The notes: generated by a model from the letters alone, not told the origin. A DNA stretch of 64,000 nucleotides from Vulcanimicrobiota bacterium (GCA_963714015.1 OY970223.1:2208001-2272000); one strand, 5' to 3'. Counted from the first letter of the stretch, positions 30,692-47,269 are shown. A program made the numbers and translations.

Positions 30692-30711
30692 GAAGATTCC
30701 TCGCGTTGAGC

Positions 30712-33400
30712 TCAGATGCGCTGTGTTACCGAGAACGTAAACGACATGGGAGCGAGGCCGAAGCGCTCGGTGCCTTGTTGCAGCGAGTTGGCGTCGGTTC
30801 CGAACTGGTTCTCCGCTTGGAATAGGCCCCAACCGATGCGTCCGTAGTTGTCGGTTGCAGCACTGAAGAGATTCGAGATTCCCAGATTCAGTGACGTTCG
30901 ATCCGTGAGCCGTGCATTGAAAAACGCGTCCGTTTCCCCAAAGGCGGGTCGATTGTAGGCGTTGTAGTTGTCGTAATGCGTGTAGTCGAGATAGACCTCT
31001 TCACCGTGCGTATTGGTCAAATCCAAGGCGATACCGTACGTATGCAGCGGGATGTTGGGCAACTGTGCGCCGTTGATGAGTGTGGGGTTCGCCATGAGAA
31101 TGCTGTCCGGCATATCGAACACGACAGCGGACTGGACGTTGTAATAAGCATCTACGGCGAGTTGCGGCGTGGCGCGCAGGCGCGTGCTGAGCTCATAGCC
31201 GCGCGCTCGTGACGTTGCGAGGTTTACGTTGGTGGCAACCGTCAGATTTGCGATTGTCGGCGCGGGATTCGGCGAGGAAAGGTTTGGGCAGATGGACGAA
31301 ATGTGGCTATACACGCCGGTTAGGTATGACGGCCCGTAGAGCTGATTGATCGTTCCGACGAACGGTGCTGCCGGTAAGTCGGCTTCGAAGATCGTATTCG
31401 TTTCATTCGTATCGTACGCCGTAAACTGCACCGTATCGTCGGTCCCGAACCGGTGACCCAGCGAAGCTTCGATGTCCTTCGCTTTTTCAGGCAGCTCGCC
31501 CGGTGTCGGCAACGACCCAAGTGAGAACAACTGGCAGTTCCCCGGATTTATTCCGCCGGCGCCGGTCAGCTCAAACGCGATCGGTGCCGGATCGGCCGAC
31601 GACGCGCCGCCCGTTAGGCGCACCACGTCGCGCGGCGTGGGCCTGTAAACGACCGACAGTCGAGGGTCGAAGGAGCTGCCGCCGATGAGCGAGTGTTTGA
31701 ACCATGCGTTGGTGAAATACGATACCCGTTGTGACGGCGTAAATGCATCGCGCACGAAGAAGTCTGTCCAGTTTGGAGTACAAGGCACTCGTGGGGATGA
31801 GGCCCGTCGCACCGCTTATCTGATCTCCGTTGGTGTATTGGCGCTGGCTGTAAAACCCGAAGCCGAGGTCGTTCTTGTCACTGGCGATGTCGTCGCTGAC
31901 CAGAGTTCCGTACGTCCGAAAAATACGGGTCAGAACGGACAAATCGCCGTTGAGGTTCGACGCGGGGCGCTCGCGGTCTTGACCGTAGTTGTCGACGAAT
32001 GAATCGACAACAATCTGGTTCTTCCCGAGCATCGTCAAGAACCGCGCGTGATAGTCCTGATTGCGAAGCGCTTGAAATGGCCCTTGTCCGCCGCCCGAAG
32101 GGCCGCTCGCGACGACGCCGTACCGCTGGGGAGTAACGCACGTCGAGCCCGCGTCCGTCGTGACCGTTATACCGTTCGGCGTCGACGAACTGCCAATCGT
32201 GCAATCCGTGCTCGACGCCGCCTGATATTGCGCGTAGTCGGCGGTAATGAAGTCGTTGTCGCCGTTTCCGGTTTTGTCGTCCCATGACGTCGCCGAGTAA
32301 CCGGTAAACGTGAGAGAAGTACTGGGCGAAAAGGACCACACGAGTTTTGCCAGGTCGTTGCGAAGCACGGCGTTACCGGTAACGAAGTAGGTGTCCGCAG
32401 CGAGCGTTGCAGACGTCCAATCGTTCCCGCGCGCACCGGTTTGCGCAATAATTTGCGGCTGGAACTGACCGTAGGTGCCGTTCACGCCGTGGATGAGAAC
32501 ATAACCGAGTTTGCCGAACGTTCCGCTCGCCTGCGTGGCGAAAAGTTGCGTGCCCTCGTCGCCGTATCCCCAGCGCATGATTCCCTCGGGCTGTTTCGTC
32601 GGATCGATTGTTTGAAAGTCAATCGCGCCGCCGACCGCGTCGACGCCGTACAGCCCTGACGCTCCCGATCCGTAAGTGACCTGTGCGCCCTTCAACGCGA
32701 ACACGGGCGAGTCGGCCAAATCGAAGCCTCCGGTTCCGCCGCCGATATCCCAGCCGGGATAGACGCCCGCCGGGCCGATAGGATGGCCGTCCAGAAGAAT
32801 CTGCGTTTCGCTTGGTTTGAGTCCGCGTATGTCGATGCCGATGTCGTCGCCCCGCGACGAGTCCGCGTCGGCGCGGTTTACGCCTGGAAGCTTCCCGAGA
32901 CTCTCAGCCAAGCGGAGTTGGTTCGTCTGCTGCACGACGTTCATGTCGACAGTCTGCTGGATTGTCGTCGTCGTCTGCAGCGTGCCGGCGCCGCCTGCCC
33001 GAATATTTGCGATCGTGCGGAGCGCTCCGCGCGAGACCGCCCGTATCAACGCCACGTTAACTGCGACGGGTCCGCTCAGCACGATGTCCTGCGAACGCCC
33101 ACTCTCATAGCCGGTCGCCTGCACCGAAATGGAGTAGATGCCGTATGGTACGGGACGAAACGCGAAATTACCGTAGGCATTGGAAACTGCCGAAGCAATG
33201 GCTTTCGTGCCCTGCTGTAATTGAAGCTGCGCATTGGCCACCGGAAGGCCGCCGTTTTGGTCGAGGATCACCCCGGTGATTGCCGCAGTCCGCGCCAACG
33301 GGGTTGGCGTCGATTGCGCGACGGCGCAAACCGTTACCGATACCGTGCAAACGATCGTGACGACGATCGAACGGACGAGCTGTTCCCAGTCGAGCCTCAT
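30712..33400 (-). CDS. TonB-dependent receptor (paralog 2), frameshift near 31770
   Basis: Carboxypeptidase-regulatory-like N-domain, plug IDIRGL..LLDGHP..AVGGAIDF, LGISNLF. Confidence 0.85.
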
Positions 33401-33445
33401 GATGGTACCTCTTTTCAGGTCCTTCCTCAAGGACGGCGCGTTACT

Positions 33446-36121
33446 CTATACTTTCTGAGATAGGGTGAACAAAAAGGCGCGTGGCGCCAAACCGAATTGC
33501 TCGGTTCCTTGCTGCAAGCCGCTGGTATCGGTGCCGTACGAGTTCTCAGGGATGAATACGCCTAATCCTATTCGGCCGTATATGTCCGAGGCTTCGTTGA
33601 ACAGGTTCGTCACGCCCAGAGTCGCGGCCAGCCCGTTACTCGTAACAGTTTGCGTCAATGCGGCGTTCGCAATGCCGAAAGGCCCGCGATTGAGCGGATT
33701 GTTTCCGGCGAAATGCGTGTAGTCCATATAGTATTCGGTTCGATCCGTGAGCGTCCAATCGAGCGTGGCACCGTACTTTTGCAGTGGGATCCCGACGAGC
33801 TGGCTGCCGTTTATCAAAGTAGGGTTAGACTGCTGCAAAAAGACCGGTGCATCGAAAATAGCCGAAGACTGCACGTCGTAGTACGCTTGCAGAGACATTC
33901 TGTGAAATCGGACGTTGCCGCTCAGCTCGATGCCGCGTGCGCGCTGTTTGGCCAAGTTGACGTTGGTCACGACCACCAAGTTCGAAATCGTCGGCGGAGC
34001 GCTCGGCGGGGAGAAGTTCGGGCAAATCGACTGGATGTGGGCGAAGATCGACGGAAGGTACGTCGAGCCCGCGGCGTTCAAGATGTCCTGGAAGTTCGAG
34101 GCCGGCACGTCTGCTTGGAAGATCGTATTCGTCTCGTTCGTATCGTACAGGACACCTTGCACCGATGCGTTTGCGTTGAAGCGGTGGCCGTAGGAGAATT
34201 CCAGATCGGCGGCTCGCTCCGGCTGCTCGTTCGGCGATTGCGCTTCGCCCACAGAGAAAATCTTACAGTTTCCGGCGCCGATGCCGCCCACTCCGGTGAG
34301 TTGCAGCGCCAGGGGCGCGGGATCCGCCGAAGACTTGCCGCCGGTTAACCGCAGCATGTCAGATCGAGTCGGGCGGAATAGTATGGACAACCGCGGATCG
34401 AACGAGTTGCCCCCGACGTTCGAGCTCTTCATCCATGCATTCAGGAAGAACGAGAGCGGTTGGGACGGCTGATACACCTCGCGAACGAAGAAACTGTTGA
34501 GGCGGTCGAATATCGGCGCATGGCCCAACACCGCAGTGCCGCTGATGTTGTCGCCGTTCGTGTACTGGCGCATCGAGAAGAGGCCGAAGCCGACGTCGTT
34601 TTTGGAAAGCGAGATGTCGTCGCTCAAAAGCGTTCCCATCGAGCGGTAGTCGACGTCCAAGATCGAGAGGGGCCCGTTGACGAACGACTCCGGCCGTTCG
34701 CGGTACTGCGTGTAGTTGTCTAGGTAAGAGTCCAAAACCACTAGGTTGCGGCCTTCGGTGGTCGTCATGCGCGCGTGATAATCTTGATTGCCCAAATGCT
34801 GGTATGCGCCGGGGCCTCCGCCGGCGGGACCGCTCGCATTCGCGGCGTACTGCTGCGGGGTGTAGCACTGCGTACCGGCATCCGTGCTCACGCTCAGGCC
34901 CGGTGAACCCGCACCGGTCGTGCAGTTCGTATTGTGCTGTGCTTGATAAAGTGAGTAGTCGTACGTGACGAAGTCGTTATCGCCCTCACCGGTCTTGTCG
35001 TCCAAAGAATTGGCAGCGTATGCGGTGAAGCTCAAGTTCGTGGCGGGCGAAAATGCGTATTGCACTTTCGCGAGATCGTTGGCAATATTGTAGTTTCCGG
35101 AAACGTAGTACGTAACGCCGCTCAAAGTGGCCGACGTAAAATCGTTACCCCGGATGCCGGTTTGCGGAATGATCGCACCTGGAAAATTCCCGAGCGTGTT
35201 CTCGATGCCGTGGACGAACGCGTAGCTCAGCTTGCCGAGAGTTCCAGTGGCCTGCGCATCGGCAATTTGGGTACCCATGTCGCCGTACGCCATTTTCAGC
35301 AGCCCTTCCGGACGCTGACTGGCTTGGATCGTTTGAAAATCGACGGCACCGCCGACAGCGTCCACTCCGTACAAGCCCGTCGCGCCGGAGCCGTACGTTA
35401 CGAGGGTATTCTGCAGCGCGAAGAGGGGAGCGACCTGATAGTCGAATCCGCCGTTGCCTCCGCCGATCCGCGAAGGGTAGACGCCGATAGGGCCAATCGG
35501 ATGTCCATCCAGCAGCACTTGCGTCTCGCTAGGCTTTAAGCCGCGTATGTCGACTGAGATGTCGTCGCCCACCGCGGAGTCTTGCCCGACTAGATTAACG
35601 CCCGGCAGCTCTGCAAGCCCCTCCGCCGCCCGCAGCTGGCCTACGTTCTGCATCAGTTTCGGATCGATCTGAGTTTGGACGGCCGTGGTCGTTTGCAGAC
35701 CACTCGCGCGCGTAGTCACATGAGCGATGGTCTTTTCTGACGATATATTCGCGGCCTGGAGGCGCGAGATCGTCACCGACACCTGCACCGGCGCACCTCC
35801 GACCACGATATCGTCCGAGCGAGCGGTTTGATATCCCGCTGCACTGACCTGAAGGTTATAAATTCCGGGCGCGACATTCGAGAACGTGAATGCCCCCGAC
35901 GGATCCGAAGTGGCATGCGCCACCGTATGATCTCCCTGGACCAACGCGATGGCCGCCCCCGGAACGGGAAGCGCCGCCCGGAGCTCCAGCACCGTGCCGG
36001 TTATCGTCGCGCCGGTGGCAGCCGGCTGCTGCGCGCGGACGAACGACGGCGTCGTTAAGAAGGCGGCGCAAACGAGAGCGCAGATGATGAACCGTATCTT
36101 GCGTGCGTCGAGTAACTGCAT
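33446..36121 (-). CDS. TonB-dependent receptor (paralog 1)
   Basis: Intact 891-aa ORF; signal peptide, plug VDIRGL..LLDGHP..AVGGAVDF, LGVTNLF. Confidence 0.9.
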   Translation of the reverse strand: MQLLDARKIRFIICALVCAAFLTTPSFVRAQQPAATGATITGTVLELRAALPVPGAAIALVQGDHTVAHATSDPSGAFTFSNVAPGIYNLQVSAAGYQTARSDDIVVGGAPVQVSVTISRLQAANISSEKTIAHVTTRASGLQTTTAVQTQIDPKLMQNVGQLRAAEGLAELPGVNLVGQDSAVGDDISVDIRGLKPSETQVLLDGHPIGPIGVYPSRIGGGNGGFDYQVAPLFALQNTLVTYGSGATGLYGVDAVGGAVDFQTIQASQRPEGLLKMAYGDMGTQIADAQATGTLGKLSYAFVHGIENTLGNFPGAIIPQTGIRGNDFTSATLSGVTYYVSGNYNIANDLAKVQYAFSPATNLSFTAYAANSLDDKTGEGDNDFVTYDYSLYQAQHNTNCTTGAGSPGLSVSTDAGTQCYTPQQYAANASGPAGGGPGAYQHLGNQDYHARMTTTEGRNLVVLDSYLDNYTQYRERPESFVNGPLSILDVDYRSMGTLLSDDISLSKNDVGFGLFSMRQYTNGDNISGTAVLGHAPIFDRLNSFFVREVYQPSQPLSFFLNAWMKSSNVGGNSFDPRLSILFRPTRSDMLRLTGGKSSADPAPLALQLTGVGGIGAGNCKIFSVGEAQSPNEQPERAADLEFSYGHRFNANASVQGVLYDTNETNTIFQADVPASNFQDILNAAGSTYLPSIFAHIQSICPNFSPPSAPPTISNLVVVTNVNLAKQRARGIELSGNVRFHRMSLQAYYDVQSSAIFDAPVFLQQSNPTLINGSQLVGIPLQKYGATLDWTLTDRTEYYMDYTHFAGNNPLNRGPFGIANAALTQTVTSNGLAATLGVTNLFNEASDIYGRIGLGVFIPENSYGTDTSGLQQGTEQFGLAPRAFLFTLSQKV

Positions 36122-36159
36122 AATGCGGACGCTCCAACTTCAATGTCCCGCCGAACTCA

Positions 36160-36945
36160 TCAGTCGCCGGGAGCGGATGCGACGGAAGCGCCGGTCATAA
36201 GACTGACGGCGCGGTCCATCGTAGTTGTTTTGGGATCCAACGATCCGACCCGGCGACCGTGGCGAAGAACGACGATCCTATCGGCCGCTTCGAAAACGTG
36301 CGGCAGATTGTGGCTGATGAAGATGACCGATATGCCTTTCGCGCAAACGCGCTGCATAAGACCAAGGACCAGTGCCGACTGCGCTACGCCGAGTGCCGCA
36401 GTGGGCTCGTCCATGATGACGACGCGCTTTCCCCACAGAACCGCACGCGCAACGGCGATGGCCTGCCGTTGTCCCCCGGAAAGCGTGTCGACGGTTTGAC
36501 GGATTTTCGAAACTTTGATTCCGAAGTCGTGCAGATGACGTTCCGCTTGCCCGCGCATAGCGGAATCGTCGAAGAAATCGAATCTTCCCAGGAATCCCTT
36601 GCGAACCGGTTCGCGGCCTAAGAATAAGTTTGCCGCCACGTCCAAGTCCGGAGCAAGGGCCAAATCCTGATACACCGTTTCGATTCCCGCACGCTGCGCG
36701 TCGCGCGGGCCGCCGAACGTACGAGCCACGCCGTCGACGAGGACCGCTCCCGTATCGGGCGTGACGGCGCCCGAAAGAATCTTCGTCAGCGTCGATTTTC
36801 CCGCTCCGTTGTCACCGATAAGTGCGACGATCTCTCCGGGATACGCTTCGAAATCGACGTCTTCGAGCGCGACGACCTTGCCGTAGCGCTTCGAGACGCC
36901 TTTCGCTTCGAGGACGGCCGCTCGAACGCCGGCAGCGACGCTCAC
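36160..36945 (-). CDS. Sugar ABC transporter ATP-binding protein (single domain)
   Basis: Walker A GDNGAGKST, LSGGQRQ and MDEPTAALG. Confidence 0.92.
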   Translation of the reverse strand: MSVAAGVRAAVLEAKGVSKRYGKVVALEDVDFEAYPGEIVALIGDNGAGKSTLTKILSGAVTPDTGAVLVDGVARTFGGPRDAQRAGIETVYQDLALAPDLDVAANLFLGREPVRKGFLGRFDFFDDSAMRGQAERHLHDFGIKVSKIRQTVDTLSGGQRQAIAVARAVLWGKRVVIMDEPTAALGVAQSALVLGLMQRVCAKGISVIFISHNLPHVFEAADRIVVLRHGRRVGSLDPKTTTMDRAVSLMTGASVASAPGD

Positions 36946-37955
36946 GCGGACGCCGCCAGTCGCTTGCGATGCTGATCGGCAAAGACGAAAGCGATGATCA
37001 GCGCGCCTTCGAGCATGCGCGCAACCTGCGGATCGAAGTTCATCAGGTTCAGTCCGTTCGTCATAATCTGCACGAGCAAGACCCCTAAGAACGTGCCGGC
37101 GATCGTGCCGCGCGCTCCGAAAAGACTGGCGCCGCCCAGAACGGCTGCGGCAATGGCATCCAATTCGAAGCCCGTTCCGGCGTTCGGATCGCCTTGCGAT
37201 TGACGCGCCGTGATCAGCAGACCGCCGAGCGCCGCAAGCACGCCGCTAATCGCGTAGACCGTCAGGATCGTTGCGCCGACGTTGACGCCGGCGCGTCGCG
37301 CACTCTCGCGGTTGCTTCCGACGGCGTAAATATAGCGGCCCCGTCGCGTAAAGTGCAGAAAAATGCCGCAGATCGCGCTCACCCCAAGCAGCACCCAAAA
37401 GAGGTTGGGAATTCCGAACGTGCTGTCCGACGCGAAATTCACGAAGCCAGGCGCGTCGAACGCCACTTGTTGGCCATTGCCGAGAATCTGCGTAAGACCG
37501 CGCAAAACGCCTAACATGCCGAGCGTGACGATGAACGGCGGAAGCGCGCCGCCCAGAATGAGCGCGCCGTTCAGCAAACCCACGGCAAGTCCCGCCGTAA
37601 TCACGATCGGCAAGACGAATGCAACGGGCAGTTGGTTCGAGAGCGACAGCGCAGCCAGTATGCCGCCGAACCCCAAAAGCGATCCCACGGAAAGATCGAT
37701 CCCGGCGGTGATGATGACGAACGTTTCGCCTACGGCGATGATTCCCACCACGGCCATCTGGCGCGCGTTGTTTTCGATATTTTCAACGCTCAGGAATCCC
37801 GGCGCCGCCGCAGCGAAGACGACGAACAGCACGACGATGATGCCGACGAGGCCGAGGCGCAACATCGCCGTCCACACGGCCAAACGCCGATCGTCGCGGG
37901 TTGCCGGCGTGCCGGCACTGCGTTCCGGGGTGACGTTTGCCACACTCGGCGTCAT
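36942..37955 (-). CDS. Sugar ABC transporter permease (RbsC-like)
   Basis: GIDLSVGS, PPFIVTLG and ELDAIAAAVLGGASL; the ATG overlaps the upstream stop. Confidence 0.9.
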   Translation of the reverse strand: MTPSVANVTPERSAGTPATRDDRRLAVWTAMLRLGLVGIIVVLFVVFAAAAPGFLSVENIENNARQMAVVGIIAVGETFVIITAGIDLSVGSLLGFGGILAALSLSNQLPVAFVLPIVITAGLAVGLLNGALILGGALPPFIVTLGMLGVLRGLTQILGNGQQVAFDAPGFVNFASDSTFGIPNLFWVLLGVSAICGIFLHFTRRGRYIYAVGSNRESARRAGVNVGATILTVYAISGVLAALGGLLITARQSQGDPNAGTGFELDAIAAAVLGGASLFGARGTIAGTFLGVLLVQIMTNGLNLMNFDPQVARMLEGALIIAFVFADQHRKRLAASA

Positions 37956-39021
37956 ACCGGCCGCGAAAAACCCATGTGACGCTTTGCTACGGGATCGAGC
38001 AGACGCTTGAATCTGCGGCGAATCGACGTTCTCCGGCGTCGCCGCGAAGACGCCCGTATCGATATTTTTGGGCACGTCGACGCCTGCTGCCGCCAATACT
38101 CCGTACGCCACACCGCCGTACCCCATTTGATACGGGTCTTGCAGGATGATCCCGTCAACGCTTCCCGATCGCAAAGCGCGCACGAGTTGCGGCGAGGGGT
38201 CGAAGCCTACCAACGAAATTTTTTTCGGATCCGTCCGATTCTCTCGAAACGCCGTGAGGGCGCCTTGCAAGGTGATGAGCGAGTCGGCAAAATAGCCGGC
38301 GAGATTGGGAAAGCGCGTCAGCGTGTCGGCAACGATACTGATGGGCTTTGTCGATTGGTCGCCGCCCGCGTCCTTGTGCGATACGACCTGAATGTTCGGA
38401 TATGCTTTGAGCGCGTCCAGGAAACCGCGATCGCGCAGCGTGAGTGAACCAACGCCGCTCAAGAAGGTCGAATAGGCAATCTGCCCGGCAGCGAGCTCCC
38501 GTTTTCTTGCGGATCGACTCGACGAGCGTGTGGGCCGCCAACATGCCGGCGGCGTGATTGTCCGTGGCCAAGAACGTGTCGTATGCCGTCGTGTTTGCAC
38601 CAGAGTCGATCAGAATGACTTTGATGCCGGCATCGTGGGCTTTTTGAATGGCCGGGACGAGCGCGCTGGCGGCTGTCGGAGCGAGCGCGATGAAACTCGG
38701 CCGCTTAGCGATTGCGTCTTCGACGATCTCAATCTGTCCGTGAATATTTGCCTCGGAGTTCGCGCCCGTGAACTGCAGCGCGTCTAGCCCGAACTGTTTG
38801 GCGGCGCTCTTGCCCCCGGCCAAACACGCCTGCCAGTAATCGGAGTTCGGGGTTTTAACGATAAATGAGAACCGGACCGCGCCCAGCGACGATTTAGCGC
38901 CTTGCGCGCAGTCGGTCAAGAACAGCAGTCCGGCGGCGCCGGCGGACGCCGGAGAAGATGCCGGCGTGAAAAGTCGGGCACGCGACCTCCAGAAAGCAGG
39001 CTTTCTCCCCAACTTCACCAT
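37952..39021 (-). CDS. Sugar ABC transporter substrate-binding protein (RbsB-like), at least two frameshifts
   Basis: SDYWQ, VILIDSG, ATDNHAAG, VGFD and LQDPYQMGY distributed over frames. Confidence 0.8.
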
Positions 39022-39022
39022 G

Positions 39023-39105
39023 TTATTGCGTCATTGTCAATATCATTGCAAAACCGTGCCGTATGCTTTATGCTTGTGCGGAGCCTTATTGAGAATAGTG
39101 CAATA
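39023..39105. promoter_or_regulatory. Two TATTG-N9-CAATA inverted repeats in the divergent promoter region (candidate IclR operators)
   Basis: TATTGcgtcattgtCAATA at 39024-39042 and TATTGagaatagtgCAATA at 39087-39105. Confidence 0.55.
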
Positions 39106-39120
39106 GAGGGAACGATTCGC

Positions 39121-39911
39121 CTGAGAAACCCAACGCTGATCAACTCTCTGGCGCGCGGCGTCAGCTATTCTACGCTTGCTGGCGGAGCGCGGCGGTGCTT
39201 TGGGGGTGACCGAGGTCGCCGAGCGCCTGCAAGTCGATCCGAGCACCGCATACCGTCTGCTCAGTACGCTCGAGGGCGATGGTTTCGTACGTCCAGGACC
39301 CGGCGACGAAAAAGTATTCGATTGGATACGGCGTGCTGGAAGTGGCGGCTGGACTACTGCGCGGCATGAGTGTCGTCGACGCCGCAAAGCCGTTCATGAG
39401 CGCGCTCTCGGCGAGTACCGGCGAAAACACGCACGTTGCAGTGCGAGAACCGGCGCGCGGCCGTTTCGGTCGGTTCCGAGTCCGCTTCCGGCATACTGCG
39501 CGTCGAAACAAAGGTCGGATCGGCCGAGCCCCTGCACTGCACGGCAGTGGGGAAGGCGCTGCTCTTCGACTATACGTATGCGCAGCTCGCCGAGCTTTTC
39601 GGCGGCGAGCCGCTGCAGCGTTATACGCCCAAACGATTACGACGCTCGATCTGCTCGATGCGGAACTTGCGCGCGTCCGCCGCCTAGGATATTCCCTGGA
39701 CGATGAGGAGTTGCATCCGGGAGTGCGCTGCATTGCGGCGCCCGTGCGGGATCACTTGGGCCGAGTCGTAGCGGCCTTCGGCATATCCTCGCCGGCGGTG
39801 CGCCTGAGCCGCGCCCGCATTCCGGAACTGGCGGAAGAGATTCGAACCGCCGCCGCGGCAATTTCCGTGCAGCTCGGAAACACAGCGCAGCGGGCGCCGG
39901 CGCTTCCCTGA
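39121..39911 (+). CDS. IclR family transcriptional regulator, several frameshifts, start uncertain
   Basis: INSLARG, HTH GVTEVAERLQVDPSTAYRLLSTL, PLHCTAVGKALL and GYSLDDEE..GVRCIAAPV. Confidence 0.85.
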
Positions 39912-39927
39912 AACGAGGGATGTACGA

Positions 39928-41736
39928 ATGCGAATGACGGGAGGCCAAATCGTCGCGGCGTACCTGATCCGTGAAGGCATGCCGATGCTGTTCGGCGTGC
40001 CCGGGCATGGAATCACCGCACTGCTCGACGCATTCGTCGATCGCCGCGGCGAGATTTCCGTAGTTCAAGCTATCCACGAGCAGGGCGCGGCACATATGGC
40101 CGACGCTTACTATCGCGTGGCCCGCAAACCGTGCGGCGTTTTCACTTCGATCGGCCCGGGCGCGGCCAACACCGCGATGGGCGTCGCAAACGCATACATC
40201 GATTCCATCCCGCTGCTTCTGCTGACGGGTTCCGTGCATACGTACATGCGCGGGCGCGGAGTACTTCAAGAGCTCGAACGAACGCATTGGGCGAATTTTC
40301 CGCGAATGATGGAACCGGTCGTGAAACGTTGGTGGCAGCCGTGCAGTGCGGACCAGCTGCCCAACGTGCTGCACCTGGCTTTCAACGTAATGCTCGAAGG
40401 CCGCCGCGGTCCCGCGTACATCGACATTCCGATGGATGTGCAGGCGGAGTACGCGGACGTTGAGCATCTTCCGAAGCCCGTTTCGCGCAGGGCCAGGGGC
40501 CGCACGCACGGCGATCCCGCAATGGTCGAAGAGGCTGCAAAACTCTTGCTGGCTGCTGAGCGGCCCGTCATCATCGTCGGCGGCGGCTTGTCTGCCTCGC
40601 AAGGTTACAGTGAACTGCGCGAAGTTGCCGAGTTTATCGGTGCGGCGGTGACGGTCACGTGGATGGGTAAAGGGTCCATATCTGAAGATCACGAGCTGTA
40701 TGCATGGCCCTGCGGCGATCTCGGTTCGATCTCCGGGAATACGCTGACGCGTGAGGCCGACGTGATTCTTTCCGTCGGCTGCCGCTTCACCGATCGAACG
40801 GCATCGTCTTTCCGCCGAGGCGCGACGTTTAACATACCGCCGACGAAGCTGATCCAAATCGACCTCGACCCGTATGAAATCGGGAAAAATTACGACGTCG
40901 AAGTGGGAATCGTCGGCGATGCAAAAGCGACGCTAGCCGATCTGGTGAGCGCGCTGCGCGACCTTTCCAAGCCGCGCGACTATCGGAATACGCCGTACTT
41001 CGGCCGCATCGCGGAGTTGAAGACGCAATGGGAATCGGCGCTTGCATCGTCGCGCGAAAGCGACGCCGCCCCGATGACGATTTCGCGCGCTCTGGTCGAG
41101 CTGCGCAAAGTACTGGACCGCGATGCGATCGTCGTTACCGGAGCCGGGAATCCGCAGAGTCAAGTATTCAACGAGTTTCCGGTTTACGGTCCGGGCCAGC
41201 ACATAACGGCGGGCGGCTTCTCCGCCATGGGATTTGAAGTGCCCGGCGCGATCGGCGCGAAACTCGCAGCCCCGGATCGACAAGTCGTCGCCGTGGTCGG
41301 CGACGGAAGCTTCCTGCAGACGGCTCAAGAATTGGCGATGGCCGCGCAGTACGACATTCCGGCGGTATTCCTCGTCATGAACAACTACGGGTGGGAGTGT
41401 ATCAAGAACCTGCAGGTACTGCAGTTCGGGCCGGACCGCGTCATCGCAACGAACTTCAAGAAGCCTGACGGAACGCCGTTCTCAGCCGATCTTGCACTGA
41501 TGTCGAAAGCAATGGGCTGCCACTCCGAGCGCGTCGAGCACCCGGCCGAAGTCGGACCGGCGCTGCGGCGCGCGTTTGCCAGCGGACGCCCTGCGGTCGT
41601 TGAGGCATTGTGCAGCCGCGAGCTGCCCGGCAGCGGTTTAACCTCGACCGGATGGTGGGACGTCACGGTTCCCGCGTACCATCTAGACAAACGCAAAGCC
41701 TATGAGAAGGCCCGTTCGGAGGAGGCGCTCACGTAG
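39928..41736 (+). CDS. ThDP-dependent enzyme (acetolactate-synthase fold; IolD-like role inferred from context)
   Basis: FGVPGHG, HEQGAAHMAD and the ThDP motif GDGSF...NN; first enzyme of the iol-like operon. Confidence 0.8.
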   Translation: MRMTGGQIVAAYLIREGMPMLFGVPGHGITALLDAFVDRRGEISVVQAIHEQGAAHMADAYYRVARKPCGVFTSIGPGAANTAMGVANAYIDSIPLLLLTGSVHTYMRGRGVLQELERTHWANFPRMMEPVVKRWWQPCSADQLPNVLHLAFNVMLEGRRGPAYIDIPMDVQAEYADVEHLPKPVSRRARGRTHGDPAMVEEAAKLLLAAERPVIIVGGGLSASQGYSELREVAEFIGAAVTVTWMGKGSISEDHELYAWPCGDLGSISGNTLTREADVILSVGCRFTDRTASSFRRGATFNIPPTKLIQIDLDPYEIGKNYDVEVGIVGDAKATLADLVSALRDLSKPRDYRNTPYFGRIAELKTQWESALASSRESDAAPMTISRALVELRKVLDRDAIVVTGAGNPQSQVFNEFPVYGPGQHITAGGFSAMGFEVPGAIGAKLAAPDRQVVAVVGDGSFLQTAQELAMAAQYDIPAVFLVMNNYGWECIKNLQVLQFGPDRVIATNFKKPDGTPFSADLALMSKAMGCHSERVEHPAEVGPALRRAFASGRPAVVEALCSRELPGSGLTSTGWWDVTVPAYHLDKRKAYEKARSEEALT

Positions 41737-42743
41737 TGGCCAGCGTTCCCGCGACGGCGGTTTTCGGCGCCGGACGAATCGGCAGAGTGCACGCACGAAA
41801 TCTTGCCGTCGAGCACGGCGCGGCTTTCGCCGGTGTGGCCGACGTCGATGAAGATGCAGCGGCGCGGCTCGTCGCCGAGTTAGGCTGCGGCCGCGCGGGA
41901 TCGGTCGAATCCTTTCTGCAGGATCCGGACGTAACCGCAGTTGTGATCGCGACACCGACCGGCACGCACGCAGATCTTATCGAGCGGTGCGCCTCCGCCC
42001 GAAAGCATATTTTCTGTGAAAAGCCGATCTCGCTGGACGTCGATGAGACCAATCGCGCAATCGCCGCCGTACGCCGTGCGGGCGTAACGATGCAAATCGG
42101 CTTTCAGCGGCGGTTCGACCCGAAGTTCGTGCGGGCGCGGCGTGCAGTCGAGTCGAACGAGCTCGGTCCGGTACGTTTCATACGGCTCGTCGGCCGCGAC
42201 CGCGCCCTGCCGCCAATCGAATACATTCGTACGAGCGGCGGTCAGTACAAAGATCAAATGATACACGATTTCGACGCTGCGCGCTGGCTCGCCGGTGAGG
42301 AAGTGGAAGAGGTGGTAGCAGTCGGAAGCGCGCTTGCCGATCGCCGGGTTGCGGATGCGGGCGACGTCGATACTGCCGTGGCTTGCCTGCGTTTCGCTTC
42401 AGGCGCCTTAGCGGTCATCGATGCATCGCGCGAAGCTCCCTACGGTTACGACGCGCGATTGGAGATTCAGGGATCGCGAGGCCTGTTCTTGGACGACGAT
42501 CGGCTGCGTTCGGGAACGGTGATGGACGCGTCATTTCTCACGCCGGACGCCGACTCGTTCGCGGATCGGTTCGGCGAAGCGTACAAGGTCGAACTTCACG
42601 AATTTCTCGCTGCGCTCGAGCGCGGCTCCGCTCCCAAAGCGCGCGGTGAGGACGCGCTCCAGGCGCTTCGCATAGCAATCGCAGCCGATCGCTCGCGGCG
42701 CGAACGGCGAACAGTGCAGCTCGCCGAGATCGAAGGCGCTTAA
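41736..42743 (+). CDS. iolG: Inositol 2-dehydrogenase (Gfo/Idh/MocA family)
   Basis: GAGRIG, CEKPI, GFQRRFD, DQMIHDFD and YGYDARLE. Confidence 0.8.
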   Translation: MASVPATAVFGAGRIGRVHARNLAVEHGAAFAGVADVDEDAAARLVAELGCGRAGSVESFLQDPDVTAVVIATPTGTHADLIERCASARKHIFCEKPISLDVDETNRAIAAVRRAGVTMQIGFQRRFDPKFVRARRAVESNELGPVRFIRLVGRDRALPPIEYIRTSGGQYKDQMIHDFDAARWLAGEEVEEVVAVGSALADRRVADAGDVDTAVACLRFASGALAVIDASREAPYGYDARLEIQGSRGLFLDDDRLRSGTVMDASFLTPDADSFADRFGEAYKVELHEFLAALERGSAPKARGEDALQALRIAIAADRSRRERRTVQLAEIEGA

Positions 42744-42747
42744 GCAC

Positions 42748-43561
42748 GTGAGCAGCCCGCTACTTCTGCGCGGCAGCCCGAACGATTTCGGCGAAGTCGT
42801 GCGAGCGACACCGGGCGGCCCGGATTGGAACTACATCGATTTCCGCGTCCTGCGCATTCCGAAAGGCCAGACGGAGGCTCGAACCACCGATGGCAACGAA
42901 TTGCTCGCCGTGTTCGTCGAGGGAACGGCGGACGTGCATTCGTGCGAAGGCGCATGGAACGCTGTCGGCGAGCGGATATCGCCGTTCGAAGGGCCGCCGC
43001 AAGCGGTGTACCTTCCCCCGGACTCTCGTTATGTCATCAAGGCAATCACCGATTGCGAAATCGCCCTGTGCGCCGCCGTGGCGCGGCGGGCCGCGCCGGC
43101 GACCGAGACTTGTCGCTTTGCGCGACACCGACGCGCGGACGCGAGGAACGGGCGCAGCCGAGCGCACTGTGTACGACTTGCTGATGAGCCCGGACGAAGC
43201 TTCGACGCTCTTCGTCACGGAAGTGTTCACGCCCGCAGGAAACTGGTCGAGCTATCCTCCTCACAAACATGACGTGGACGATCCGCCGCGCGAGTCGGCG
43301 CTCGAGGAACTTTACTATTACCGCGCGTCGCCGCCCGCGGGCTTTGCGTTTCAGCGCATCTACACCGCCGACGGAGAGCTGGACGAGACGATAACGGCGC
43401 ATAATCGCGACGCTGTGCTCGTGCCGCGCGGCTATCACGTCTGCGCGGCCGCTGCGGAATACAGCATCTATTACTTGAACGTTCTCGCCGGTCCAAAGCA
43501 CGTCTATCACATGACCTTCGATCCCGAGCACGAGTGGATCAAGCGGGATTGGGTGTGGTGA
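42748..43561 (+). CDS. iolB: 5-deoxy-glucuronate isomerase, frameshift near 43085
   Basis: EVFTPAGNWSSYPPHKHD, LEELYYYR, LVPRGYH and YYLNVLAGP. Confidence 0.9.
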
Positions 43562-43566
43562 GCGCG

Positions 43567-44437
43567 ATGCGCATCGGGACCGCATCGGTTAATTGGGGCT
43601 TCGACCCTTTTTACACCTGGTCGAAGACGCCGTCATTCGAACGGATGCTCGACGAAATGGAACAAGCGGGTTATGAAGGGACGGAGATCAGCTACAATTT
43701 CCCCGACGACGCCGGTGCCCTGAGAGATGAACTCTGCAAGCCGCAATCTCGCTGCCGCCGCAACGTTTCACGCCGTCGACGTACGAGACCCGGAAAATCA
43801 CGACGCAGCGATGGCAAGCAGCATGCGCGTGGCGGAACGGCTGCGAGACGTCGGATCGGACGTCTTGATCCTCTCGGACAAGCCGTCCTCCGGCCGGATA
43901 GCCGTGGCCGGACGCGCAAGCAAATCGGACGAACTCGACGATCGCGGCTGGAGAACGATGACGGACGGCTTGCAGCGAATCGCTGAAAGGCTGCGAGCCG
44001 GCGGCATACACGCGGTTTTTCATCCGCATGCGGGGACGTACGTGGAAACGCGCGACGAAATCGACCGGTTTTGCGAGATGACCGATCCTGCGCTAATCGG
44101 CCTATGCCCCGATACTGGACACTTGGCCTATGCGGGCGCGCGGCCTGAGGACGTCTTCGCGGACTACGCAGATCGCATCGAATACGTCCATCTCAAAGAC
44201 GTCGACGCGGCAAAATTGGCGCGCGTGCGCGAGCAGGGAATAGATTTTGTCCAAGCTGTGCGGCTTGGGATGTTCGTCGAGCTCGGTACGGGCGCGGTGT
44301 CGATCCCTGCGATCGTCGAAGCGCTGCGATCGCGCGAATACTCCGGTTGGATCATCGTCGAGCAGGACGCTCCACCGGAGCCGCTTCGTTCGGCGCTTGC
44401 GAATCGGCGCTACCTTCGCGAGTACTTCGGTCTTTGA
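43567..44437 (+). CDS. iolE: Myo-inosose-2 dehydratase-like sugar phosphate isomerase/epimerase (TIM barrel), frameshift near 43735
   Basis: GYEGTE, FHPHAGTYVET, DTGHL, VHLKD and GWIIVEQD. Confidence 0.7.
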
Positions 44438-45270
44438 ACGCCGAGTCGCTCGCCCGCATCGGCGACGACATTCGCAGACACGTTCTGCACGCGGTCCATC
44501 ATGCCGGAGCCGGTCACATCGGCGGAGTCTTTTCGGCAGCCGATATGCTGGCCGCGCTCTATTTCGAAATTCTGCGTATCGATCCGGCTCGGCCGGCTTG
44601 GCCCGACCGGGACCGCTTCATTCTCTCCAAAGGACACTGCGCGATCGGATTGTATGCGGCGCTGGCGCTGCGCGGGTATTTTCCGATCGACGAACTGAAC
44701 ACGTTCGACGCGATCGATTCCCGGCTGCAGGGGCATCCGGACATGCGAGCGTTACCGGGCCTCGACATGTCGACCGGGTCGCTCGGGCAAGGCCTTTCAC
44801 CCGGCGTCGGCATGGCGCTAGCCGCGCGGATGACGGGCAAGGATTTCCGCACGTGGGTTATGCTTGGCGACGGCGAGATCCAGGAGGGACAGATTTGGGA
44901 AGCCGCCTTCTGCGCAGCCCGGTACGATCTCGACAACGTAACCGCCATCTTGGATTGGAACGGCCTGCAGCAGTACGGCTGGCCGACCGTTTCCGGATAT
45001 ACGGTAGACGACAGACGTGAGCCGGTCGACAACGCTCGCGATAAATGGGCGGCCTTCGGCTGGAACGTGCTGGAATGCAACGGCCACGACGTTTCCGCAT
45101 TTCTCCAAGCATGCCGAACGGCATGCAGTACGCGCGGACGGCCGTCGATCGTCATAGCGCGCACCGTTAAGGGGAAGGGCGTCACGTTCATGGAGCACGA
45201 CTATACGTGGCATTCCCGGCCTGTCACCCCGGAAGCTCTGGCGCAAGCGCTGACGGAGCTGCAGCGATGA
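44434..45270 (+). CDS. Split transketolase, N-terminal (ThDP-binding) subunit
   Basis: GHIGG, DRFILSKGH, STGSLGQG and GDGEIQEGQIWEA; the TTG start overlaps the upstream stop. Confidence 0.9.
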   Translation: MNAESLARIGDDIRRHVLHAVHHAGAGHIGGVFSAADMLAALYFEILRIDPARPAWPDRDRFILSKGHCAIGLYAALALRGYFPIDELNTFDAIDSRLQGHPDMRALPGLDMSTGSLGQGLSPGVGMALAARMTGKDFRTWVMLGDGEIQEGQIWEAAFCAARYDLDNVTAILDWNGLQQYGWPTVSGYTVDDRREPVDNARDKWAAFGWNVLECNGHDVSAFLQACRTACSTRGRPSIVIARTVKGKGVTFMEHDYTWHSRPVTPEALAQALTELQR

Positions 45271-46202
45271 CTGCATCTGCGCAGCGAGACGTTTTCGGCG
45301 AGACGCTCGTGCAATTGTGCGACGAGGACCCTCGGGTGGTCGTCCTCGACGGCGATCTGGCAAACTCAACGAAAAGCGACCGCGTTGCGCTGGCACGGCC
45401 GGATCGCTTCGTGATGATCGGCATCGCCGAACAAAACCTGGTAGGCGTGGCGGCCGGCATGGCGACGGTCGGTATGATACCTTGGGTGTGTTCGTTTGCC
45501 GCGTTCTTAGCTTCGCGCGATCTCGACCAGGTTCGCGTGGTGGTCGCTCAACCGCGCTTGAACGTAAAGCTTGCGGCGCATTACAGCGGTATCCTGACGG
45601 GCTACACCGGGAAGACGCACCAGGTCGTCAACGATATCGCGATCATGCGCTCGCTGCCGAACATGACTGTGATCGCTCCCTGCGACGCCGAGGAAGCCCG
45701 TATGGCGATTCGAGCGGCAAACGAATTCGACGGCCCGGTTTATATGCGCTTCACTCGCGATCCGATCGAAACCGTGACGAAGCCCGGAACTCCATTTCGC
45801 ATCGGCGCGGCAGCGCTGCTTCGGGAGGGCACGCAGATAGGGCTGATTAGCACGGGAGCGCAAACCGTGCGGGCGATGCAAGCAGCGCGAGTGCTCGGGC
45901 GGGAAGGCATCGATTGCGCCGTGCTGCACGTGCCGACCCTAAAACCGATCGATGAACAGGCTATCGTCGATTTGGCTTTGAGGATTCCTTTTATCGTAAC
46001 GTGCGAGGAACATTCGATCCTAGGCGGCCTCGGCGGCGCAGTAGCAGAGGTTCTGTCCGAACGGTGCCCGACGCGTATCGCGCGATCCGGTCTGCGCGAC
46101 GTCGACGGCGAGAGCGGGCCGAACGACGCGCTCCTGGCGAAGTATGAGCTGAATGCCGAATCAATTGCGGCGCACGCGCGACGGCTTTTCGCGCTCGCAT
46201 GA
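45267..46202 (+). CDS. Split transketolase, C-terminal subunit
   Basis: GIAEQN, GKTHQ, GPVYMRF and EEHSILGGLG; ATGA overlap. Confidence 0.9.
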   Translation: MTASAQRDVFGETLVQLCDEDPRVVVLDGDLANSTKSDRVALARPDRFVMIGIAEQNLVGVAAGMATVGMIPWVCSFAAFLASRDLDQVRVVVAQPRLNVKLAAHYSGILTGYTGKTHQVVNDIAIMRSLPNMTVIAPCDAEEARMAIRAANEFDGPVYMRFTRDPIETVTKPGTPFRIGAAALLREGTQIGLISTGAQTVRAMQAARVLGREGIDCAVLHVPTLKPIDEQAIVDLALRIPFIVTCEEHSILGGLGGAVAEVLSERCPTRIARSGLRDVDGESGPNDALLAKYELNAESIAAHARRLFALA

Positions 46203-47269
46203 AGATTGCCGTACTTTCGGGCGACGGCATCGGACCGGAGGTCATCTCACAAGCGGTTCGCGTGCTGCGAGCCGTTAGACCGGACGTTGAATGCGTCGAA
46301 GGATTGGCCGGCGCGGCGGCAATTCGCGCCGGCGAAGAACCGTTGCCGCCCGCGACGCGATCGCTCTGCGACGCCAGCGATGCGATTCTTTTTGGTTCAG
46401 TGGGCGACGCCGAGCTCGACGCTGAGCCCTTTGCTCGGCGCCCTGAAGCCGCGCTCTTTTCACTTCGCCACGACTACAGCCTCTTCGCAAATCTTCGCCC
46501 CGTGCGAACGTATCAAGGTCTCGAACATGCATCGAGCCTGCATTGGCACCTTATCGCGGGCCTCGATCTCATCGTCGTACGCGAGCTCACCGGGGGCATC
46601 TACTTTGGTACGCCGAAGGAAGTCCGCGTCGACGCGCGGGGCAAAGGCTACGCCGTTGATACGATGTCATATACCGAGGGGGAAGTCGACCGAATCGCGC
46701 GCGTTGCGTTCGAACTGGCGATGCGCCGCCGCCGTCACGTTACGTCGGTCGACAAACACAATATCTTGGCCACGTCGCGGCTGTGGCGAGGCGTCGTCGA
46801 GCGCGTCGCCACGGAGTATCCCGCCGTTGAAGTCGAGCATCTCCTGGTCGACAATGCGGCAATGCAAATTATTCGGCGTCCGCGTGACTTCGATGTTATC
46901 GTCACGGAGAACATGTTCGGTGACATCCTTTCGGACGAGGCGGCGATGCTGACGGGATCGATCGGAAATTTGCCGAGCGCGAGCCTCGCGGGGCAAAGCG
47001 ATCGCGTGTTCGGCATGTACGAGCCCATCGGCGGAACCGCACCCGACATCGCGGGCCGCGGTATCGCCAATCCGACGGCGGCCATTTTGTCGGCCGCACT
47101 GTTGCTGCGCTTCAGCGCCGGCGACGAGCCGGCGGCATTGCGGATTGAAAACGCGATCGCCCAATGTTTTCGAGATGGTGTACGAACGGCCGACTTGTGT
47201 TCTAGCGGCCGGGACGCGGTAAGCACGGCGGCGTTTGGGGATGCGGTTTTGGCGCGTCTCGGCCTTTAG
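46199..47269 (+). CDS. leuB: 3-isopropylmalate dehydrogenase family beta-decarboxylating dehydrogenase
   Basis: GDGIGPEV, LFANLRP, RELTGGIYFG, NMFGDILSDEA and GTAPDIAG; ATGA overlap with the transketolase. Confidence 0.8.
   Translation: MKIAVLSGDGIGPEVISQAVRVLRAVRPDVECVEGLAGAAAIRAGEEPLPPATRSLCDASDAILFGSVGDAELDAEPFARRPEAALFSLRHDYSLFANLRPVRTYQGLEHASSLHWHLIAGLDLIVVRELTGGIYFGTPKEVRVDARGKGYAVDTMSYTEGEVDRIARVAFELAMRRRRHVTSVDKHNILATSRLWRGVVERVATEYPAVEVEHLLVDNAAMQIIRRPRDFDVIVTENMFGDILSDEAAMLTGSIGNLPSASLAGQSDRVFGMYEPIGGTAPDIAGRGIANPTAAILSAALLLRFSAGDEPAALRIENAIAQCFRDGVRTADLCSSGRDAVSTAAFGDAVLARLGL

Follow-up and report, generated by a model that had tools for sequence, protein, structure and literature searches.

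Inositol, which is freed from phytate and phospholipids, is a major carbon source of soils and plants, and its bacterial catabolism is taught as one pathway. In this pathway, which in the Bacillus subtilis type consists of IolG, E, D, B, C, J and A, the known product of IolB is 2-deoxy-5-keto-D-gluconate (DKG). A related operon is found at positions 39928-47269 of a 64,000-nucleotide stretch of DNA (the window) from a Vulcanimicrobiota bacterium (GCA_963714015.1, OY970223.1:2208001-2272000), which corresponds to C1:2208001-2272000 of a single 3.56-Mb contig. Like in the canonical pathway, an IolG with an equivalog score and an IolB that reaches such a score as the sum of its two pieces are encoded there, and a relative of IolE and a thiamine diphosphate (ThDP)-dependent ring-opening candidate fill the upper pathway, whereas a split transketolase and a LeuB paralogue are found in place of IolC, the class II aldolase and IolA. 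It has an even chance, in our estimate, that the operon encodes a variant of inositol catabolism that is independent of the kinase and the aldolase.

A dedicated transketolase for an unphosphorylated ketose with an anionic tail has a precedent in the sulfo-transketolase pathway, in which SqwGH cleaves 6-deoxy-6-sulfofructose and transfers the ketol to glyceraldehyde-3-phosphate (GAP) (PMC9594981). The comparison is one of reaction and not of sequence, and in the sulfo-transketolase pathway a sulfonate is degraded in two cleavage rounds that are joined by an RpiB-type isomerase, whereas a carboxylate and only a single cleavage are expected here. Another precedent is the route from 5-ketogluconate to tartrate. 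An Escherichia coli TktA variant is reported to convert 5-keto-D-gluconate into tartaric semialdehyde, and it has been proposed that plants and E. coli form tartrate with a transketolase and a succinate-semialdehyde dehydrogenase (SSADH) (PMC12016104, PMC7970118). As DKG is the 2-deoxy analogue of 5-ketogluconate, the same bond in the same carbon skeleton would be cleaved, and in both cases an acid semialdehyde would then be oxidised. That route serves biosynthesis or has been engineered, with the variant R358I/H461S/R520Q, whereas R358, H461 and R520 are kept in the transketolase described here and D469 and P471 are changed. For the last step, the tartrate/D-malate dehydrogenase DmlA of E. 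coli (TIGR02089) is the enzyme to compare with; it shares with the LeuB paralogue the superfamily PF00180 and the reaction that is proposed here, but the enzyme of the window is a recent offshoot of LeuB with only 35% identity to DmlA. In the open-access literature, to which the search was confined, no paper was found that links iol genes or DKG to a transketolase or to a D-malate route.

The operon consists of seven plus-strand genes in the order ThDP enzyme, IolG, IolB, IolE-like enzyme, transketolase N-terminal subunit (TK-N), transketolase C-terminal subunit (TK-C) and LeuB copy (Table 1), as assigned by Pfam and NCBIfam profile searches, in which the NCBIfam cut-offs are curated equivalog thresholds. 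The genes are tightly coupled, in that neighbours either overlap by 1-28 nt or are 4 nt apart; TK-N and TK-C overlap by 4 nt, as do TK-C and the LeuB copy, with the start of TK-C chosen after a database form of 311 amino acids, and the next gene 3' of the operon lies on the opposite strand. The original prediction, made from this stretch of DNA by itself, had described just such a tight operon of these seven families, and this has been borne out, but it had overlooked that both iolB and the iolE-like gene are broken into two frames. IolG reaches its family threshold narrowly (359.2 bits, cut-off 355 for TIGR04380), and IolB reaches that of TIGR04378 when its two pieces are summed (positions 4-101 with 70 bits and positions 99-247 with 202.5 bits, against a cut-off of 205 for the full model). 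The solved proteins nearest to the IolE-like enzyme are IolE proteins, with 96 and 90 bits. The ThDP enzyme is the top IolD-like match of the genome (323 bits), and there is no second IolD-like gene in the genome, the runner-up having 125 bits; acetolactate synthase models score the protein about as well as the IolD model, and none of these models was passed. The ThDP enzyme is the presumed ring-opening enzyme in place of IolD.

The canonical lower pathway was not found outside the operon either. For IolC (TIGR04382), the best match in the whole genome has 37.6 bits with a cut-off of 300 bits, and a search of 41 genomes of the class (the own genome and 40 relatives, four of the 41 being unpublished) gave no match above the cut-off. 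Likewise, the class II aldolase family PF01116, to which IolJ belongs, has no match in the own genome and none in the 41 genomes. There is no IolA within the operon, and the sole methylmalonate/malonate-semialdehyde dehydrogenase above the cut-off in the genome is encoded at C1:151726, outside the window. The absence of iolC, iolJ and iolA that had been noted for the window thus holds, and in the case of iolC and iolJ it extends to the genome and the class. As to the leuA, leuC and leuD genes, which had also been reported missing from the window, LeuC-like matches lie outside it at C1:2766322-2767578; no search was made for leuA and leuD.

The operon is conserved. An orthologous TK-N with 70-76% identity occurs in 7 of the 40 relatives, which belong to the same genus, family and class, and all seven have the full order of an IclR-type regulator followed by the ThDP enzyme, IolG, IolB, the IolE-like enzyme, TK-N, TK-C and the LeuB copy. 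A scan of contigs with one genome per species added the loci L048 (Candidatus Eremiobacter antarcticus) and L049 (another metagenome-assembled genome, MAG), of which L048 was excluded from all counts as a probable duplicate of L022, and 19 contigs whose TK-C has at least 64% identity came from a scan of metagenomes. The same gene order is thereby found in 27 other loci, mostly Eremiobacterota-like and with at least 64% identity in TK-C, so that the combination of iolB, split transketolase and a gene of the isopropylmalate dehydrogenase (IPMDH) family is a conserved neighbourhood, with the LeuB copy in 19 of 20 cases. The counts per gene in Table 1 refer to these 27 loci, of which only those long enough to show the respective gene were assessable; since these loci are related to each other and the same genome may be represented by more than one contig, the counts are not independent. 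The ThDP enzyme is 78-86% identical among the orthologous loci, and the named database relatives of TK-C come from Eremiobacteraceae, Acidoferrales and Chloroflexota.

More distant homologues of the ThDP enzyme (53-64% identity) are encoded together with IolG, IolB and IolE-like genes in a Bacillota MAG and a Chloroflexota MAG. In the Bacillota MAG (L055, 1692-11980), the cluster comprises an FGGY kinase, a glycerophosphodiester phosphodiesterase, IolG, the ThDP enzyme (53%), an IolE-like protein and IolB, and no transketolase, which hints at glycerophosphoinositol-type substrates that would be degraded via the same non-IolD ThDP enzyme. In cultured Actinomycetota, the closest ThDP homologues (52-57% identity) belong to another conserved set, which is found in Arthrobacter sp. 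(L051, 4384-8854) and Leucobacter musarum (L057, 6608-11779) and which consists of a GMC oxidoreductase, the ThDP enzyme, a xylose-isomerase-like TIM barrel and a histidinol-dehydrogenase-like protein. This set could not be assigned to a known pathway, and as the clusters are unrelated, the Actinomycetota homologues were not counted as support.

From the observed gene content, its conservation, the gene absences, the origin of the LeuB paralogue and the transketolase clade, every enzymatic step of the following route is inferred. IolG would oxidise the cyclitol, the IolE-like enzyme would dehydrate the product of IolG, the ThDP enzyme in the place of IolD would open the ring to give 5-deoxy-glucuronate, and IolB would isomerise this to DKG. 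Without phosphorylation by a kinase or cleavage by an aldolase, the split transketolase, which belongs to a clade with a threonine in place of an active-site aspartate and a lysine two residues on, could then take C6 and C5 of the unphosphorylated DKG as a ketol and transfer it to an aldose phosphate acceptor, such as GAP, which would yield xylulose-5-phosphate. The remaining fragment would be (3R)-3-hydroxy-4-oxobutanoate, which an aldehyde dehydrogenase encoded elsewhere may convert to D-malate, and the LeuB paralogue of the operon could oxidatively decarboxylate the D-malate to pyruvate. By our own reasoning with Fischer projections, the stereochemistry would permit this: DKG, when read from C6, should be a 2-ketose with the 3-hydroxyl to the left and the 4-hydroxyl to the right, i.e. 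of the same (3S,4R) D-threo configuration as xylulose-5-phosphate and fructose-6-phosphate, and its carboxylate should sit where the phosphate ester oxygen of xylulose-5-phosphate would be. Cleavage between C5 and C4 should leave (3R)-3-hydroxy-4-oxobutanoate, the oxidation of which would give D-(R)-malate, and this has the 2R configuration that is used by the IPMDH family, so that decarboxylation would lead to pyruvate. The original prediction had already proposed the sequence from DKG via malate semialdehyde and D-malate to pyruvate, and the stereochemistry, the conserved LeuB copy and the absence of a canonical lower pathway speak for it; the particular aldehyde dehydrogenase that it had named does not hold up (see below).

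The operon transketolase keeps the ThDP/catalytic His residues and all residues that align to H26, H66, H100 and H261 (in TK-N) and to R358, H461, H473 and R520 of E. coli TktA, among which R358, H461 and R520 are presumably the phosphate-binding residues. What is different is a loop that reads GEDGPTHQ in E. coli TktA and TGYTGKTHQ in the TK-C of the window, with D469 and P471 replaced. In all eight operon TK-C sequences that were aligned, T-G-[YF]-T-G-K-T-H (with Arg for Lys in one of them) replaces G-E-D469-G-P-T-H, so that the canonical pattern G-x-D-G-x-[ST]-H is absent from the operon TK-C. This loop is shared by all 19 close orthologues from metagenomes, and the tier with 44-47% identity has VGEDGxSHQ. 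Two further transketolases are encoded in the genome, of which the one at C1:1839510 is full-length and the one at C1:881979 is split and retains the aspartate. A tree was made of 106 TK-C rows, in which the 48 that have the motif (xGKTH) form one side of a branch with a Shimodaira-Hasegawa-like approximate likelihood ratio support of 98 and 57 rows with the aspartate lie opposite; as the motif columns were retained and the groups were defined by the motif, the tree shows clustering only. The closest solved structure is the transketolase of Carboxydothermus hydrogenoformans (6YAJ/6YAK), which has the same split architecture and matches TK-C with 283 bits but has the canonical loop VGEDGASHQ; a structure with the xGKTH loop was not found among the solved structures searched. 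D469 of the E. coli transketolase is described as pointing into the active site, and D469T is reported to alter the acceptor specificity, including that for carboxylated aldehydes, with T469 being able to hydrogen-bond to substrate carboxylates (PMC5073344). Judged by the alignments, the operon transketolase is a specialised one that belongs to a distinct clade with the active-site aspartate replaced.

Members of the same clade occur in other contexts. Metagenome contigs L147-L150 encode a TK-C with 52% identity to that of the window and the loop GLTGKTHQ. L148 has IolD (891 bits, cut-off 715), TK-N, TK-C, an IolB-like cupin of 145 amino acids and an oxidase of 977 amino acids with flavin adenine dinucleotide (FAD) and iron-sulfur domains, the best model of which is the D-2-hydroxyglutarate dehydrogenase YdiJ with 601 bits, below the cut-off. 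In L150, a DeoR regulator and an SSADH (TIGR01780, 744 bits, cut-off 646) are encoded divergently from IolD (897 bits), which is followed by a remnant of TK-N, by TK-C and by a racemase of the LarA family that stays below the cut-offs of the lactate and malate racemase models. The remnant (4239-4376) comprises only the last 46 TK-N codons between IolD and TK-C; it is either a deletion or an assembly artefact, and the contig is 94% identical to L148. In a sample of 401 Chloroflexota genomes, 30 (one of them unpublished) have a TK-C with at least 50% identity, and in all 20 loci that were inspected x-G-K-[TS]-H is found at the aligned position. In L213, the transketolase is encoded beside IolG, IolB, IolD (931 bits), a further IolG and an IolE-like protein; in L210, IolD (923 bits) stands beside the transketolase and is followed by two aminotransferases, IolB and an IolE-like protein; and in L214 the transketolase follows a ThDP enzyme with 53% identity. 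L211 has the transketolase, a GntR regulator, an SSADH-like aldehyde dehydrogenase and then a TIGR02089 enzyme (542 bits, cut-off 470) with 53% identity to E. coli DmlA, as well as an FGGY kinase, and L209 has the transketolase, a GntR regulator and again a TIGR02089 enzyme (523 bits), so that a true DmlA-like gene follows an xGKTH transketolase in two loci. In none of the five Chloroflexota genomes that were checked does an IolC exceed the cut-off.

Three kinds of enzymes thus follow the xGKTH clade, namely dehydrogenases of the IPMDH family, a LarA-type racemase and a protein that resembles FAD-dependent D-2-hydroxyacid oxidases, and an SSADH occurs twice. The followers are all from families with 2-hydroxy acids as substrates, and together with the SSADH this fits a four-carbon hydroxy-dicarboxylate as the product. 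The link between the transketolase and inositol, which had been predicted from the window alone, has in this way gained support from members of the same clade that are encoded beside bona fide IolD, SSADH and D-2-hydroxyacid enzymes. The xGKTH transketolase is also found with a sugar ATP-binding cassette (ABC) transporter in L209, L212 and L218, and with a GntR regulator in L209, L211 and L212. In L216 (4317-16174), it lies amid a tripartite ATP-independent periplasmic (TRAP) transporter, alpha/beta hydrolases, a glyoxalase-family protein, a cyclase, an epimerase and an amidohydrolase, a context that is unrelated to inositol.

The LeuB copy at the end of the operon belongs to the LeuB family (TIGR00169, 436.4 bits, cut-off 353.2), has 53% identity to E. 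coli LeuB, keeps all motifs, and has only IPMDH proteins as its best solved relatives. It is neither the sole nor the housekeeping copy of the genome, as a second LeuB is encoded at C1:311924-312986 among divIVA, lgt, lspA and others, and not beside leuCD. Two LeuB-type genes were found in six of the seven operon-bearing relatives, and in the seventh, G013, there was no match at the threshold used. In a maximum likelihood tree of 26 sequences with DmlA as the outgroup, the seven operon copies form one clade (98/94) that is nested in the housekeeping LeuB of the same bacterial family, and E. coli LeuB falls outside the LeuB of that family. Two genomes of another order have an operon copy with 66-71% identity to that of the window and another LeuB-type gene with only 35-36%, which indicates that the LeuB copy travelled with the operon. 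In the loop RPE-x-ALF-x-LR, which we take to contact the isopropyl group, the operon copies have small residues (A/K/T/H and S/A/T) at the two variable positions, and the nearest housekeeping proteins have Y/F/L and L/V, as seen by eye. By its sequence, the operon copy is a very recent LeuB duplicate, and it is proposed as a candidate D-malate dehydrogenase (decarboxylating). Of the earlier suggestion of a LeuB-family enzyme in D-malate decarboxylation, the conserved extra copy beside the iol genes is retained; its assignment is with LeuB and not with the DmlA/tartrate dehydrogenase family, and there is almost no systematic change in the active site.

The genes around the operon add a regulator and transporters (Table 1). 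A sugar-type ABC transporter is encoded divergently from the operon; orthologues of its binding protein in the relatives have 60-86% identity, and a homologous transporter lies upstream of the operon in 11 of 18 related loci. Between and beside the aldehyde dehydrogenase and the transporter region lie a phosphoesterase of the phospholipase C/acid phosphatase type and two TonB-dependent receptors, and these might serve the uptake or dephosphorylation of inositol phosphates or phospholipid head groups. The best family of the aldehyde dehydrogenase is NF006915, with 233, 213 and 80 bits for the three pieces and a cut-off of 730 bits. It can thus be called SSADH-like at the family level only and is one possible candidate for the aldehyde oxidation. 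Full-length matches to aldehyde dehydrogenases exist at six further places in the genome. The distribution of SSADH-family matches was tried as a guide to the enzyme and was uninformative, since such matches occur in 39 of the 41 genomes irrespective of the presence of the operon.

Table 1. Genes of the operon and its surroundings in the window, with the number of loci that have the gene among those in which it could be assessed
Feature	Position	Strand	Profile matches	Present/assessable
Phosphoesterase-family protein	27574-29286	-	PF04185
SSADH-like aldehyde dehydrogenase, three frames	29283-30700	-	PF00171 in three open reading frames (ORFs)
Two TonB-dependent receptors	30712-36136	-	CarboxypepD_reg N-domains
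ABC transporter ATPase (sugar/CUT2-like)	36160-36945	-	PF00005; best NCBIfam matches are sugar ABC ATPases, all below cut-off
ABC transporter permease (BPD_transp_2)	36942-37800 (end approximate)	-	PF02653 in ORF 36942-38606
Periplasmic sugar-binding protein (Peripla_BP_4), two frames	37800-39027	-	PF13407 halves in ORFs 36942-38606 and 38155-39027
IclR-family regulator, two frames	39140-39911	+	HTH_IclR in 39140-39703, IclR_C in 39210-39908	18/18 (directly upstream of the ThDP gene)
ThDP enzyme, acetolactate-synthase/IolD superfamily	39928-41736	+	three thiamine pyrophosphate (TPP) domains; IolD model TIGR04377, 322.8 bits	18/18
IolG, inositol 2-dehydrogenase	41736-42743	+	TIGR04380, 359.2 bits	18/18
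IolB, 5-deoxy-glucuronate isomerase, frameshifted	42748-43561	+	TIGR04378, two pieces	19/19
IolE-like TIM-barrel enzyme (inosose dehydratase relative), frameshifted	43534-44437	+	TIGR04379, two pieces	21/21
Transketolase N-terminal subunit	~44422-45270 (start approximate)	+	PF00456, 175 bits	24/24
Transketolase C-terminal subunit, xGKTH clade	45267-46202	+	PF02779 and PF02780
LeuB-derived IPMDH paralogue	46199-47269	+	TIGR00169, 436.4 bits	19/20 (after TK-C)

There are a number of observations that weigh against the DKG route. In difference to the canonical pathway, the ThDP enzyme and the IolE-like enzyme fail the IolD and IolE cut-offs (322.8 bits with a cut-off of 715 for TIGR04377, and pieces of 32 and 163.6 bits, together about 196, with a cut-off of 290 for TIGR04379), and as they score below these models, their substrate may be other than myo-inositol. 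It is thus conceivable, albeit rather unlikely, that the same architecture serves another cyclitol or a keto sugar acid, that DKG is not the ketose which the transketolase cleaves, and that the LeuB copy acts on another (2R)-hydroxy-dicarboxylate (for example, tartrate or a 3-substituted malate). The ThDP homologues of Actinomycetota in unrelated clusters would agree with this, as would L210, in which IolD, the transketolase and IolB are joined by two aminotransferases, and the binding protein of the transporter, which has weak matches only, to rhamnose and allose binding proteins. Also, the genomes of L211 (G172, transketolase with SSADH-like and TIGR02089 enzymes) and L209 (G061, transketolase with TIGR02089 enzyme) contain no IolB, and these clusters probably act on another keto-acid, so that they back the DKG route by analogy only. 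Together with the clusters of L212 and L218, they are candidates for a natural pathway in which tartrate or malate would be formed from a keto-acid, be it 5-ketogluconate or another one. Furthermore, in three Chloroflexota genomes no gene of the IPMDH family was found beside the clusters of iol and transketolase genes, and in 10 of the 20 Chloroflexota loci (50-56% identity) the neighbours, many of them housekeeping genes, have no inositol or catabolic link; another transketolase is encoded in all five genomes that were checked among these ten. The xGKTH loop alone, which had been considered as a marker of DKG cleavage, is weakened in this role by these ten loci. What speaks against another substrate is that IolG and IolB reach the equivalog cut-offs, with the IolB pieces summed, that the product of IolB is DKG, and that the ThDP enzyme takes the position of IolD beside IolG, IolB and the IolE-like enzyme in three phyla.

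The steps after the cleavage have their own difficulties. The operon LeuB copy fails the tartrate/D-malate dehydrogenase model TIGR02089 (203.9 bits, cut-off 470.4), only two weak columns (P/A at residue 48 and I/V at residue 125) separate the 7 operon from 16 housekeeping LeuB sequences, and in contig L136 the copy is absent, with an unassigned ORF and a LivF-like ATPase following TK-C. The copy could therefore be an ordinary IPMDH. That it is a second such enzyme for leucine synthesis or a redundant one, co-transcribed by chance, with other enzymes taking the C4 product, agrees with its LeuB score, its identity to E. coli LeuB, the complete motifs and the near absence of diagnostic substitutions, and is nonetheless improbable, as the copy closes the operon at the 3' end in 19 of 20 loci and overlaps TK-C by 4 nt in the window, has entered, together with the operon, genomes in which the other LeuB-type gene has only 35-36% identity, and is accompanied by a separate housekeeping LeuB in all six assessable operon-bearing relatives, and as other D-2-hydroxyacid enzymes follow the transketolase clade elsewhere. 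For the step before, the original prediction had named the aldehyde dehydrogenase at 29283-30691, which is frameshifted here and was never found near the operon in the relatives with listed neighbourhoods. In fact, no aldehyde dehydrogenase adjoins the operon in any Eremiobacterota-type related locus whose neighbourhood was listed, and as none is linked to the operon, one step of the DKG route has no assigned gene.

Finally, the frames of the operon genes have to be considered, since a single-base indel splits iolB near 43085-43100 and another one the iolE-like gene near 43733-43745, which, if real, would speak against a working pathway in this genome. In the relatives, the orthologues of both genes are one uninterrupted frame. 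The regulator, the binding protein and a TonB receptor have one break each, the aldehyde dehydrogenase at 29283-30700 has two, and the housekeeping leuB is broken as well, which amounts to about 7 frame breaks in 18 kb of a one-contig genome that is 89.6% complete; comparable breaks are found within the highly conserved ThDP gene in the assemblies G007, G013 and G017 of relatives. The breaks are therefore likely to be indel errors of an uncorrected long-read assembly, and this is favoured because they occur also in unrelated neighbours and in the housekeeping leuB; if the assembly is such an unpolished one, gene calls can be suggested to be fragmented across the genome. That the operon is a decaying pseudogene cluster in this genome, with genuine frameshifts in the genes of IolB, the IolE-like enzyme, the regulator and the binding protein, has in its favour that four genes of the cluster are out of frame and that the public contigs (one study, three DNA runs) do not span 43085-43100 or 43733-43745, but with breaks equally frequent in the unrelated neighbours (two in the aldehyde dehydrogenase, one in the TonB receptor), a likewise split housekeeping leuB, this density of breaks in a single-contig genome and the similarly broken ThDP genes, it is very improbable.

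The kinase- and aldolase-independent degradation of inositol, if it takes place, would matter in several respects. A lower branch with a transketolase would spare the ATP of the kinase, and the carbon would flow to the pentose-phosphate pool and pyruvate and not to dihydroxyacetone phosphate and acetyl-CoA. For widespread soil phyla without cultures (Eremiobacterota, Chloroflexota), this would be a first metabolic trait, and it would show that a biosynthetic LeuB has been recruited to catabolism with almost no sequence change. A wider proposal, which is offered tentatively and with less confidence than the pathway itself, is that the xGKTH split transketolases are a natural keto-acid family that cleaves carboxylated, unphosphorylated ketoses such as DKG and 5-ketogluconate, that this activity completes an ATP-independent inositol pathway in Eremiobacterota in which the LeuB duplicate is early in its neofunctionalisation, and that the family supplies a catalyst for the conversion of 5-ketogluconate to tartaric semialdehyde. 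If this is true, inositol and GAP would be converted to xylulose-5-phosphate, pyruvate and CO2 in Eremiobacterota, and the long-sought natural catalyst for the step from 5-ketogluconate to tartaric semialdehyde would be at hand. The transketolase clade may offer natural catalysts for unphosphorylated keto-acids, which are now sought by engineering for the production of tartaric acid.

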